Position numbers and translations under genes: made by a program. The notes beneath the pieces were generated by a model. It ran no database searches, was not told where the DNA came from, and saw only the letters and a list, made by a program, of their open reading frames with translations. This document shows, piece by piece, positions 4,955 to 30,646 of a stretch of 64,000 nucleotides of DNA (its first letter is position 1; the number at the start of each line of letters is the position of its first letter). The stretch comes from Candidatus Poribacteria bacterium (GTDB lineage Bacteria > Poribacteria > WGA-4E > PCPOR2b), in contig OZ244042.1 in NCBI GenBank assembly GCA_965215015.1, positions 4,736,001 to 4,800,000 of the forward strand. The letters are read 5' to 3'.

Positions 4955-5694
4955 ACCAATATAGATTGAAGCGGGAAACAACTGCCGCATTGTTCAATAT
5001 CATCTGCGGGGATGTGTGCAAGCATCGCTCGCATCATCTCATCGGTGGGCTTCTGGTTGTTATCGCGCGGTGCGGTTTGTGGTGGGGGGGTTGGTCTTTG
5101 AACAGGGGGCTTAAAGAGGGGTTCCCAATGGCGGGGCGTGGCATCCTTCAAAATAGCGTGGGGGTCGGGGGAGATGAAACACAGGCAATTGATGTTCTTC
5201 GGGTTTCCGTCAATCTCGCCGAAACCCTTATCAATGCAGTAAGACTTGACGGCTTCAAATGCTGCGGCGTGGTCCTCAACGGTCGCTACTGGTGAGACCT
5301 TTATCAATGCTTTTACTTTGGCGCGCGGCGATCGAAAGACAAGTCGGGCGTGCGGGTCAATGCACAAGTCATCAAAGAGTTTGTCGAAGTCTGTGGATTC
5401 ATCAAAATCGGCTTGAATCAGATTCGTGTGCACAAAATCACCCGTGCGTTTGCCAGTGGGTAACCGATGGCGTAAAAGCGGGTAACGCCGTCTTTGCTTT
5501 CGCTTGTGCCTCTCCAGTCAGCGCACGGACCTGGTCAATCTTGAGTTTCCAAGTGGGGTCGGCGGTCAGTTTACGATGCAACTGCTGGATGTTGCCAGTG
5601 TGGTTGCTTTCTTTCGATTGATCCCCACGCTGAAAGAACGAAAATCGCTCTAAATCGGGAAATTCCCCATCGGTTGATAGATTTGCGCTTTCAT
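4951..5694 (-). pseudogene. decayed VirE-N/BT4734-like primase gene with the start of a PriCT-2-like domain
   Basis: RBS AAAGGAG plus ATG 5694; fragments in different frames read KAKTALPAFTPS, HTNLIQADFD, LVFRSP, LCFISPDP and MLAHIPADD; at least one clear frameshift (~5458), probably another near 5655; 3' truncated. Confidence 0.62.
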
Positions 5695-5843
5695 TTGCCT
5701 CTCCTTTCAAGTGCAGTTTCTACACGAGTAAGGGCAGTTTTTTTCACACCTTGGGGGCGGGTGTGGCGGTGTCCGTCATCCACGGATTTTCTTTATCAAG
5801 TCTATCGAGTTCGGAATCACTGAGAGGATTTATCACATTCATG

Positions 5844-5885
5844 TTGTCTGAATCAGGATTCTCAGGATTTGGAGATTTTCAGGAT
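5844..5885 (+). repeat. TTGTCTGAATCAGG-type dispersed repeat
   Basis: Related copy on the minus strand at 21523-21564; the same TTGTCTGAATC start occurs inside both MITE copies. Confidence 0.55.
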
Positions 5886-6830
5886 CTACCACATTCCGAC
5901 CTGTTAGCCTACAAGATCCTAACAATCCCCTAACAGAGGCCCTTCAAGCCGCCTATCAGACGCGCTAACAGGCGGAGAATGTTGACAAATCCCAGTTGTG
6001 GCGACTCCTTTTCGCTGTCTAACCAGTATTTGCCTTTGGCTTGGTCCTTCGAGCTTGTTACACTCAGGTTTTTACCGGAGTGTATAAAGCTCCTTCGTGT
6101 TATAATGTATGTAGATAAATTTGCACATGGTTAGAAGTAGATTTACCCGTATTCCAAGCCATCTTATCAAGCCGCTTTTTGATCTAATGTGTAGCATCCC
6201 CGCTCTGTTATTCTTGCCCAACGCGCCATGATTTTTGCCCTCCATATTGATACTAAAACACCAAGATTTACATCACTCATGGTTCAATCCGTCTGTTAGG
6301 CCTCTGTTAGGTGAAACCTAACAGACAGCTAACAGGCTTTGAATGATATAAATCCTCCCGGATCAAAGGGAAATTATAACCCGTGTTTCAAGCCCTGAAA
6401 ATTCCTTTTGCAGCAAGCCGAACCCCTTGCTATGCTTGAATCCGTGACCAATTCGCATATGCAACCGAAGAGAAGTTTCAACTCTGCTGAAACGCCCCTT
6501 GGGGATATTATGATTATTATACCACGCAACCATAGCAGACAGACGCAATTCACGAATGGGATTGTTACCCGACTTGTCAGGCTGCCTGTTAGGTGTAGTT
6601 GTTAGGTGAAACCTAACAGCCATGTTAGCGGCACGCTAACAATCCCTCACCTAACAGTCCAAAAAAAGGGGGTATCCAAGGCAGATTGTGAGCCATACGG
6701 CTGACAAAGCCAAGGATACCCCCAGTTTCATTAGAGATCTTCAACATTCTCCGCCTGTTAGCGATTCGCTAACAAGCGGTTAAAAACCGTCTGTTAGGGC
6801 GAGCCCTAACAAGGCGGAATGTGATAGATC
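5883..6830. mobile_element. 948-bp non-coding foldback-like element with multiple TGTTAG/CTAACA hairpins
   Basis: Terminal IR 5883-5907/6806-6830 (22/25 match), perfect 23-bp IR 5963-5985/6741-6763, and 18 exact hexamer copies. The structure is directly visible; mobility is inferred. Confidence 0.6.
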
Positions 6831-6857
6831 TTTTTATCTTTTTATTGGGATTGATTG

Positions 6858-8000
6858 TTATGGGGAACCATCAGGCGGTTGATCATCGCGACGCGTATGA
6901 CCTCTTGGCGCATCACGGGAAGGTGCCCCCCGACGCTCCTGCTCAAGACGCTCCTGCTCAAATCGACGAGCAGCCTCAGGGTCAGACTCTCGCAGATGGC
7001 GCAGCTCCTCCTCTGCGCCGAATTGTTTTATCAACTGTTGCGCCTTATCAAAACGTTCCGGTGATAACGGTTCACCGGGGGCCGAGTCGCTTTCGTCTGT
7101 AAAGTTCCCGTCGTTTTCCAGCGTATCCTCCGCGGTTTTCGACACCGGTAAAGTTGCCTCTGTTGAAAACACTTTGGGCGGGGACAATTCTTTGAGGTTT
7201 TCATCGAGTAAAGAGCTATCAATCCCATCTGGGACGCTAGCATCAGAGGGACTTGGCATAAACCACGACGCTTTTTCCCTTTGTTGCCCTCTCTTTACCC
7301 CCCGGCTTTCATCATAGGCACGGAGCTTCTCTTGCAACTCAGCCATCGTTTTGTCGACGGCATCGGCACCTCGCTTTCTCCTTTGCCATTCAGGATCGTT
7401 TTCTCTTTCTCTTTGTGCTGCTTCTATATCCTTCTGCAGTTTTTCAAACGCTTCGACTCCAAACGGGTCCGGCACCTCATCAAGAAACCGCCTGTAACTG
7501 TTAATCATATTCTCGATAAATTGATACTCCTCACTTTCTCTTTTGAAAGGAAGCCTCTGGTCAGCATACAAAATCATTAAATCAATCATGAAATCGTGGG
7601 CGGGGTCGAACTGATTGATAATTCGCCATCCCAACTCGCTCTTTTCGTCCCCTTCAGCAGCATCATATTGCTTTTCCAACACTTCGGGCGAATACTCGTC
7701 ATATTGGACAAACGGGTGGTTGAAAAGCCAATCCTCAAAGGCGTTGATGTTTTCAACTAACTCAGGCGAGCGCCTCGAGGGATTATCCGCTCCGATATAG
7801 GAATCCTGAGAGAGGACCTGAGTGAGTTGTTCAACGCCGAGTAGTCCTTTTGATCCCCGGCCCCCTAAGTCCCCTAAAGCAGGAACGTCCCAGCGGGAAT
7901 AATACCACTGGGACGTAATATAGCAAAAAAAGATAAACGCAACACTTGCAAAAGCACAGATAAAAACGAATTTTGGCAAGTGGAATACAGGCCGTTTCAT
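6858..8000 (-). CDS. hypothetical membrane-anchored/exported protein
   Basis: N-terminal TM segment, acidic low-complexity linker, helical C-terminal motif SPERFDKAQQLIKQFGAEEELRHLRESDPE; start at ATG 8000 with RBS. Confidence 0.75.
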   Translation of the reverse strand: MKRPVFHLPKFVFICAFASVAFIFFCYITSQWYYSRWDVPALGDLGGRGSKGLLGVEQLTQVLSQDSYIGADNPSRRSPELVENINAFEDWLFNHPFVQYDEYSPEVLEKQYDAAEGDEKSELGWRIINQFDPAHDFMIDLMILYADQRLPFKRESEEYQFIENMINSYRRFLDEVPDPFGVEAFEKLQKDIEAAQRERENDPEWQRRKRGADAVDKTMAELQEKLRAYDESRGVKRGQQREKASWFMPSPSDASVPDGIDSSLLDENLKELSPPKVFSTEATLPVSKTAEDTLENDGNFTDESDSAPGEPLSPERFDKAQQLIKQFGAEEELRHLRESDPEAARRFEQERLEQERRGAPSRDAPRGHTRRDDQPPDGSP

Positions 8001-8065
8001 TAGTTCTCCCCTTCTGCTTCCCGTAACTGTCGTTGCAGATCCGCTATCCATTGATCCGCCTCATC

Positions 8066-8968
8066 TCAAACCTGTGAGGCGAATTCATCGAGCATCTGAC
8101 GGATATTGCGCGCATCACCAACAATGAACAGGGGAGCTAAGGCACCCCGGCCGTGTAGGGCTTGAAGTAGGCGATCAATCTGAATCATGCGGGCTTTTGG
8201 GGTGCGGCACTTGGGCCACCATTCAACGAATTCACGCGCGGGTTTCGGGTTACCGGTTCTCAGGGGTCTGGCACCCCGCCGCCATGCCTGCCACCTGAAG
8301 GTATGTCCACAACTCGTACACTCCAGTCTTTCATCTCGCTTTTTCAGGCTTTTGCGATAATCCCGCCAGCGGCGTGTGTAGCCGCACTCGGTGCACTGGA
8401 TATTACCACGTACATGAAGCGCGACCGCTTGGCATTTAGGGCATTCTATTTCAGGGTGAGGCCGGCGATGTCTGGCAACTTGCTTGGGTGCCTCGACAGC
8501 CGGTTTGCGTATTATTAGACAGCAGTAGGGACAAGGCAGACGGACACGGGTTTTCACCGACCGATGGTAGGCTTTCTGATCCCATATTTTACCACAACGG
8601 CACCGCAACTCCTCTGTTCCAGCCAGCAGGGCATGACAAGCAAAACAACGCGGGTTTTCACGAAGGGATTCACGACAGTCGCGCCAGAGCAATCGTTTGG
8701 CACAGTGCGGACAGTGAAACCAGCGTTCGCGGGTGCCACCGTCGCTATCGCGAAATAGTAGGTCAATTCGGCACTTTACCTTTGTGCTGCATTGAGGGCA
8801 GGGCACTAATCCATCTCGGTAAACATCAGCGACCACCGCAATGTCGGCACAACGACCGTAGAGCTCCCAACCGACAATCTGTAGCAGATCATCATCGTGG
8901 AGCCCCAATCGAGCGGCGCGGTAGAGACGGCGGATTTTGCTAGGCTTTACCCGGGGGGACCACTTCAT
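8066..8968 (-). CDS. hypothetical Arg/Lys-rich multi-zinc-ribbon protein
   Basis: About 300 aa from MKWSPRV; eight Cys knuckles (CPQC, CPHC, CFAC, CRC, CPYC, CPKC, CTEC, CTSC). Confidence 0.75.
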   Translation of the reverse strand: MKWSPRVKPSKIRRLYRAARLGLHDDDLLQIVGWELYGRCADIAVVADVYRDGLVPCPQCSTKVKCRIDLLFRDSDGGTRERWFHCPHCAKRLLWRDCRESLRENPRCFACHALLAGTEELRCRCGKIWDQKAYHRSVKTRVRLPCPYCCLIIRKPAVEAPKQVARHRRPHPEIECPKCQAVALHVRGNIQCTECGYTRRWRDYRKSLKKRDERLECTSCGHTFRWQAWRRGARPLRTGNPKPAREFVEWWPKCRTPKARMIQIDRLLQALHGRGALAPLFIVGDARNIRQMLDEFASQV

Positions 8969-30552: not shown

Positions 30553-30646
30553 GGGAGGGGATAGGGTCCGGTGGCTCTACTGGTCTTCAAAACCAGCTTG
30601 CCCATGCAGGTGGGTAGGTGGGTTCGACTCCCACCCTCTCCCGCCA
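30553..30646 (+). tRNA. selC: tRNA-Sec (UCA)
   Basis: 8-bp acceptor stem GGGAGGGG/CCTCTCCC plus GCCA, long D stem, anticodon arm CTGGT-CTTCAAA-ACCAG, long variable arm, 5-bp T stem with TTCGACT. Confidence 0.95.

Follow-up and report, generated by a model that had tools for sequence, protein, structure and literature searches.

The REP/BIME repeats of bacteria and the REPINs moved by TnpA-REP transposases (RAYTs) are stem-loops of 20-50 bp, like the repeats described here (PMC8266576, 10.1101/279083, 10.1101/2021.07.10.451892). REPs nested inside longer palindromes have already been described (PMC3733652). In the CGTC-REPs and the Neisseria dRS3/NTS mosaics, as published, a 6-bp inverted repeat encloses a spacer of 7-8 nt that varies, as it does in our repeats (PMC3733652, PMC11893778). 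Bacterial MITEs and Rickettsia palindromic elements are likewise non-autonomous and dispersed, with inverted ends and in-frame insertions (PMC10969869).

The window is a stretch of 64,000 nucleotides from a Candidatus Poribacteria genome (G000:C1:4736001-4800000), located on a single 5.94-Mb contig. It holds 42 copies of the hexamer TGTTAG/CTAACA, 18 of which span positions 5902-6811, exactly the number counted in the original prediction, which took 5883..6830 for a discrete 948-bp non-coding element. Since the hexamer occurs at 0.32/kb genome-wide and 0.62/kb in non-coding DNA, 0.3-0.6 copies are expected per 948 bp. No other 948-bp stretch of the 5.94-Mb genome is as rich, the runners-up having 12, 9 and 9. 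The locus is not an assembly artefact, because contigs from two other studies (runs X6 and X8) contained the module junctions without differences from the window. We found the 948-bp stretch to be a spot in a decayed mobile-DNA relic that was hit separately by several palindromes, some of them nested. The features of the region are as follows.

4999..8065, unstranded: patchwork island of 3.07 kb, made up of a decayed primase/Cre-like-recombinase element and a cargo gene for a predicted secreted protein
4999..5710, minus strand: BT4734-like (VirE-N) primase relic, frameshifted and 3'-truncated (Pfam PF08800, E=1.7e-4)
5740..6049, minus strand: small Sel1-like gene, 3' half (codons about 44-88), interrupted by module 1 (Sel1 hit)
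5824..5994, unstranded: module 1, a 171-bp composite insertion with palindrome ends and four hexamers
5844-5885: genus-wide REP-like repeat nested in module 1
6051..6092, unstranded: separate 42-bp hairpin immediately upstream of the -10 box (inverted-repeat search)
6104..6118, plus strand: left half of a Cre-type 13-8-13 site, behind TATAAT at 6101-6106 and fused to unrelated DNA within the spacer
6262..6357, unstranded: module 2, a two-ended palindrome with a nested TGTTAG hairpin, which aligns with the family
6557..6660, unstranded: module 3, a one-ended mosaic array with six hexamers
6733..6833, unstranded: module 4, a 101-bp palindrome with two nested hairpins
6858..8051, minus strand: predicted secreted cargo protein of 397 aa (open reading frame, multicopy family)

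Empty sites were obtained for two of the modules. In a paralogue at G000:9246-9108, window positions 5740-5823 are joined directly to 5995-6049, and module 1 is therefore a 171-bp insertion into the Sel1-like gene; its junction may alternatively be read as a 2-bp AG duplication. The same empty site was present in a deep contig of metagenome run X5. Two further paralogues (G000:5475-5615 and 1896103-1895982, with junctions at G000:5552-5556 and 1896041-1896045) join 6650-6732 to the DNA after 6833, so that module 4 is a separate insertion of 101 bp. Module 2 was 85% identical to G000:3765553-3765630, and no empty site for it was found. The DNA to the right of module 3 (6660-6732) was preceded by other arrays, or by no array, in three paralogues. 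The hairpin at 6051-6092, whose arms are loosely like those of the long palindromes described below, had a homologue in a run X5 contig. The 397-aa cargo protein gave no match in the Pfam search, and the 3' tail of its gene was found 14 times in the genome.

These insertions do not coincide with the predicted boundaries: the left one (5824-5994) begins outside the proposed end, and the right one runs from 6733 to 6833. Both inverted matches on which the boundaries had been based exist, the 22/25 terminal match (5883-5907/6806-6830) as well as the perfect 23-bp repeat (5963-5985/6741-6763). However, the two ends are not specially paired, and other loci match them equally well or better. Positions 5883-5907 differ by 1 mismatch from genome position 2718540 versus 3 from the proposed partner, 6806-6830 by 2 mismatches from each of three other loci, and an exact copy of the 23-mer lies at genome position 5010. 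The GATC at each end, thought to be either part of the inverted repeat or a target duplication, belongs to the end motif of a repeat family and does not represent a target duplication. The description of the stretch as non-coding was only partly right, as 5995-6049 is the continuation of the interrupted Sel1-like gene.

A discrete 948-bp foldback element, or an array whose two inner segments are inverted or excised by recombination, is thus a highly improbable account of the locus, and we regard it as already largely refuted. The terminal similarity and the 23-bp repeat speak for it, as does a contig of run X3 over 5795-6698 whose depth was 257 against 391 and 377 on its flanks, a dip that may reflect hairpin bias or a mixed population. 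Against it, the proposed boundaries fall inside real insertions, no second copy of the inner segments was found in 176 genomes, and the contigs of two studies kept the module junctions, with no inversion between modules among the joints listed. No second copy of the unit was found in its own genome or in 40 relatives, whereas 39 clusters of at least three hexamers, made from the same pieces, occur genome-wide: the modules are a dispersed family and no 948-bp unit exists, an outcome that the original prediction had named as refuting a distinct system. The suggested foldback or MITE character holds solely for the modules taken one by one, as short, non-autonomous insertions with a palindromic structure, and does not extend to the whole 948 bp.

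A large structured non-coding RNA is the least credible of the readings and can practically be set aside. The folding z-score of -10 relative to 20 shuffles is in its favor, but the fold energy stems from DNA palindromes of independent origin. No conserved homologue was found, and Rfam returned just two weak matches, both below the gathering score. The only tRNA in the window was tRNA-Sec (30553-30646), and the promoter scan gave a result at chance level.

The modules are built from two palindrome families, both of which are expanded in the source species. The long family is a palindrome of 42-48 bp, NNN-GATY...RATC-NNN, with slightly asymmetric arms and a variable 3-nt centre or loop. The short family is a hairpin of ~25 bp, GNYTGTTAG-N7-CTAACARNC, in which three semi-conserved bases lie outside TGTTAG-N7/8-CTAACA. 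TGTTAG and CTAACA were 7 nt apart in 42 pairs and 8 nt apart in 12. Of the 24 distinct spacers of 7 nt, 16 were complementary at the first base pair from the outside and 16 at the second, and these two pairs covary; the third, complementary in 5, does not, which indicates a stem with a 3-nt loop. Seven of the 16 two-ended long-palindrome rows (module 1 being counted twice and one row doubtful) lacked the hexamer, and the remainder held hairpins in the arms, at two positions that mirror each other.

The genome contained 47 hairpins and 63 end motifs, compared with 4 in a shuffled genome, and the strict motif reached 0.29/kb in non-coding versus 0.06/kb in coding DNA. When genomes were compared, the end motif of the long palindrome was counted 18 times in the source genome, once in G004 and not at all in 39 other relatives. 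The short hairpin was counted 43 times in the source genome, 11 times in G018 and 1-4 times in 24 others (controls, 0-4), and was absent from 125 of 151 genomes. Units were found at coding and non-coding sites throughout the chromosome, including a 48-bp copy in frame within a Cre-like gene and another in a gene of G004.

Filled and empty sites could be paired in eight cases, without a fixed target duplication. Six of the eight pairs, those of the 48-bp copies in the Cre-like gene and the G004 gene among them, fit blunt insertion if the three bases beyond GATY at either end are free to vary; for two of these six, a 2-bp duplication, not the same in both, is an alternative reading. Of the remaining two, one was off by one base and one, a hairpin unit, fits 2+2.

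The short hairpin inserts into the long palindrome, into REP-like repeats and into itself, and further into sequences that we take to be IS200/IS605-type ends. In several alignments of relatives it replaces or enters the loops of existing hairpins. A MITE of G018 has ten near-identical dispersed copies (L080-L090) with the TGTTAG hairpin, and the loop lies in one orientation in 5 and in the other in 5. One repeat family has fixed anchors with a graded series of 6 to 78 bp between them, its interior inverted between copies, and one recombinase gene present in five copies has a different mosaic upstream of each. Template switching is described as giving loop flips when the arms are over 9 bp, and such flips need no dedicated enzyme (PMC8604942). 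The units inserted separately and with blunt junctions, nested, swapped and flipped their loops, and expanded in this species. At G000:C1 5881900-5884600 (L107), three tandem units of ~1 kb each hold a coiled-coil gene with a palindrome mosaic behind it. A gene-cassette model was considered for this coiled-coil gene family and rejected, the modules being often adjacent but irregularly placed.

The island that carries the stretch is flanked by an mtaB-like radical-SAM gene on one side and by the next conserved gene on the other. It was absent from the same site at 18 of 18 congener loci: 14 had about 100 bp or less there, three had 0.6-0.8 kb of other DNA, and one had another island, of 5.9 kb, which includes a Cre-like gene. 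Locus L051 matches the window up to 4998 and resumes at 8066. The primase relic was 86% identical to P0001 (438 aa, with PriCT-2) and 77% identical to an intact gene in G090; primase relatives occurred in 4 of 175 other genomes. In G090 an intact operon comprises the primase, a Sel1-like gene directly upstream of it, a coiled-coil gene and a divergent Cre-like recombinase that is 66-68% identical to a subfamily with six whole or broken copies in the source genome. In the protein collection, the closest primase (86%) and the closest recombinase (84%) are both encoded on 17,518-bp contigs (P0001/P0025). Homologues of the two were not found in viral contigs, and all plasmid matches to the recombinase were under 60% identity. 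For a 592-aa protein of the element, the ESM Atlas gave Rep3 as a lead, with recognition below the reliable range.

Ten of the 11 integrases of the source genome belong to one Cre-like family. Two of the Cre-like copies have open frames and catalytic motifs, all 17 PDB matches being Cre or Tre, and recombinases at least 81% identical were confined to this genome among 41. At three related recombinase loci (G047, G090 and G133) a 13-8-13 palindrome lies behind a -10-like box, just upstream of the gene in G047 and G090 and about 0.9 kb upstream in G133; these sites fit Cre-type sites as described (PMC10250229). The left half-site at 6104-6118 matches the position of these full palindromes, and a run X5 contig diverges from the window after 6118 into the matching right half-site. 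The suggestion of recombination sites was correct only in a loose sense, through this half-site, which is not a TGTTAG module.

Several other observations concern related islands. Two islands of G017 (L058:1500-7300 and L059) share the same Cre-like recombinase and promoter and carry different predicted secreted-protein cargo, and one of them occupies the same mtaB site as the island of the window. A 376-aa protein inside another Cre-like island (L104:7449-8576; G000:C1 about 2862450-2863575) had AcrVA2-like clusters as its nearest in the ESM Atlas (scores 0.97-0.98, of low recognition value). A fragment of a second, phage-type primase (L106:2255-2587; G000:C1 about 3847250-3847590) lies directly upstream of another Cre-like copy. 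Palindromes of the form TCCGATAA-N6-TTATCGGA separate successive cargo genes of G090 at six sites (L203:13853-19119, L223:1536; G090:C47) and flank a 303-aa tyrosine recombinase in G000:C1 (247564, 251668, 4174218, 4175191; L204:4733; L207:6256); they look like a lox-type gene-module array. As a target of the Cre-like enzymes in the source genome they were rejected, none being found near the six close recombinase copies.

The proposed link with a primase element is real, as the palindromes are strongly enriched near its relics. Of the 32 long-palindrome clusters, 15 lay within 3 kb of relics (1.9% of the genome) and 7 within 3 kb of the six close recombinase copies (0.7% of the genome); these counts include the locus studied here and some chance regex matches. 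Of the 35 hairpin clusters, 11 lay within 3 kb of relics.

Contigs of run X5 with homologues of the primase and of Sel1 had a depth of about 400; they also carried the site of module 1 in its empty form and another TGTTAG mosaic. Stretches identical to the host flank had a depth of about 20, some 20-fold below. Because a REP-rich bin in X5 was not inflated to match, the gap hints at an extrachromosomal element, in one data set and with contig depth that is not copy number. The depth of these primase-bearing contigs and the position of the modules next to the primase relic are what would favor a role of the modules as iterons of a replication origin, or as priming signals, of the primase replicon next to them. 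We nevertheless hold this role to be very unlikely. Module 1 interrupts a gene and is missing from the deep X5 homologue, and units occur at coding and non-coding sites across the chromosome. No TGTTAG modules were present at any of the four primase loci of other genomes (G090 and three others), and the lack of modules in the intact G090 relative of the primase element argues against an iteron origin, which should be conserved in intact replicon relatives. A primer-concatemer model was likewise discarded on NrS-1 geometry: that primase is reported to begin its primer upstream of its own recognition site, so that concatemers of such primers would lack the motif (PMC8718748).

The association with recombinase copies raises the question of whether the primase element's own Cre-like tyrosine recombinase moved or shuffled the units of this pile-up, which we consider unlikely. 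The palindrome ends would then be outward-facing degenerate half-sites, which would account for blunt insertion with variable terminal bases. Apart from the crowding of long-palindrome clusters around close recombinase copies (7/32) and element relics (15/32), the end motif (18 versus 1 in 40 relatives) and the recombinases of at least 81% identity are both nearly confined to the source genome, and two recombinase copies retain open frames and catalytic motifs. The palindrome arm also resembles the recombinase half-site (ATCTACA..ATT), a post-hoc observation, and the deep X5 contigs hold primase homologues together with other TGTTAG mosaics. However, the TGTTAG hairpin occurs in congeners that lack the recombinase subfamily, as does the single palindrome of G004, and the intact G090 element has no modules. 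Half-sites of G047 and G090 were not clearly dispersed above control (188 versus 136; 44 versus 144), the cognate sites are 13-8-13 palindromes of the ordinary type, a normal excision circle needs more than 48 bp, and the clustering may reflect neutral space. The more specific proposal that the 42-48-bp palindromes are the smallest non-autonomous Cre-type elements, inserted by the enzyme of a replicating primase element with neither target duplication nor homology, and then collecting 25-bp hairpins, is if anything more doubtful.

We consider it probable, with reservations, that neutral DNA of a decayed primase/Cre-like element was independently hit by two non-autonomous palindrome families moved as hairpins in trans, and that the hexamer cluster has no function as a unit. 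The units would move as single-strand hairpins, cut and rejoined in trans, either by a Y1 HUH enzyme as for REP/BIME or by a comparable hairpin nuclease no longer intact in the genome. Template switching between arms during replication may flip loops and shuffle arms, and the mosaics would build up in this way. The blunt junctions, hairpin form, 3-nt loop and asymmetric arms resemble those of the single-strand systems described in PMC8266576.

A search for the mover gave the following. RAYTs above the cut-off were found in 53 of the 81 genomes of the order, whereas the source genome, with dozens of REP-like families, had RAYT fragments and no intact RAYT or IS200 TnpA. At RAYT loci of relatives, none of the best 30 of ~400 matches had a long-palindrome end, and none had more than one heptamer. 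No small GIY-YIG, Ssn-type or DUF559 nuclease was found in the source genome, whose two GIY-YIG matches (frames of 279 and 618 aa) are not near a cluster. A C|T junction fits about two of six long-palindrome pairs. No multicopy IS with the same ends was seen among 140 repeated segments of at least 500 bp inspected by eye. A host RAYT would not lead one to expect the strong association with Cre-like/primase relics, which counts against the explanation by hairpins moved in trans.

Wide scans for the full long palindrome gave 0 matches in genome contigs and 0 in viral contigs. Looser patterns were rejected: hairpin-plus-tail gave a single match, which was not a hairpin; a shorter pattern gave 48 metagenome loci with 8 different sequences between them, none of which extended into a palindrome; and another gave 2 matches in viral contigs, both at one incidental site. 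Among the literature matches listed on Poribacteria repeats or palindromes, and on nested miniature hairpins without target duplication, no title or abstract described these repeats. The pair of nested mobile palindromes is so far undescribed, but of an ordinary repeat kind. Its interest lies in its expansion in one lineage with unusually clean before-and-after sites, which bears on how REP-like repeats spread where the cognate transposase is absent. If the Cre-like recombinase were the mover, the palindromes would constitute a new class of miniature tyrosine-recombinase transposon, and the enzyme would be able to insert short DNA at non-cognate sites.

Among known systems, the MITEs of DDE transposases share terminal inverted repeats and empty sites with our families (eight filled/empty pairs), but not the fixed-length target duplication (blunt insertion in 6/8) or an IS with the same ends among the 140 segments. 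In comparison with the MITEs and Rickettsia palindromic elements of the published accounts, the units are much smaller and mostly without target duplication. Ssn systems are described as a small GIY-YIG gene flanked by a hairpin, and none was found in the source genome. The Cre/lox comparison fits the host element, whose gene for a Cre-like enzyme has a 13-8-13 site nearby (PMC10250229), and does not fit the TGTTAG modules, which are not 13-8-13 sites and have odd spacers of 7 nt. Integron attC sites (RYYYAAC...GTTRRRY between cassettes) differ as well: TGTTAG/CTAACA pairs were GTT-first in 84 cases versus 14 reversed, and the genes of the commonest neighbouring family were not regularly bracketed by modules.

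The likeness to REP and REPIN repeats is closer, in that the families are short multicopy palindromes, mostly extragenic and clustered in mosaics; arrays with short linkers and in-frame gene insertion are shared with REP/BIME and REPINs as described. The S. maltophilia REP, reported with an 8-bp stem and 3-nt loop, is close in size to the short hairpin. On the other hand, the 5' GTAG/GGAG tag at the stem foot is missing, six different 4-mers (AGAT, GGAT, CGCT, CGCC, CGTC and CCTC) dominating in its place with no single tag. A cognate RAYT flanked by the repeat was found neither in the source genome, which has fragments only, nor at the best 30 of ~400 loci of relatives. C|T junctions, in the published accounts of REP/BIME, are not the rule here, and the two families nest inside each other. 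Like dRS3/NTS, the units form clustered mosaics, but a CGTC-type tag (CGTC, TGTC or CCTC) precedes 20 of 108 arms; the CGTC-REP stem is described as starting with AT, with 8-9 bp and a 4-5-nt loop, whereas the short hairpin starts with TG and has a 3-nt loop and no fixed tag. Because the comparisons of tag and cognate enzyme failed, we did not assign the families to REP/BIME or CGTC-REP/dRS3; judged by overall resemblance to the published descriptions, the closest known kinds are these REP/BIME and CGTC-REP/dRS3 mosaics.
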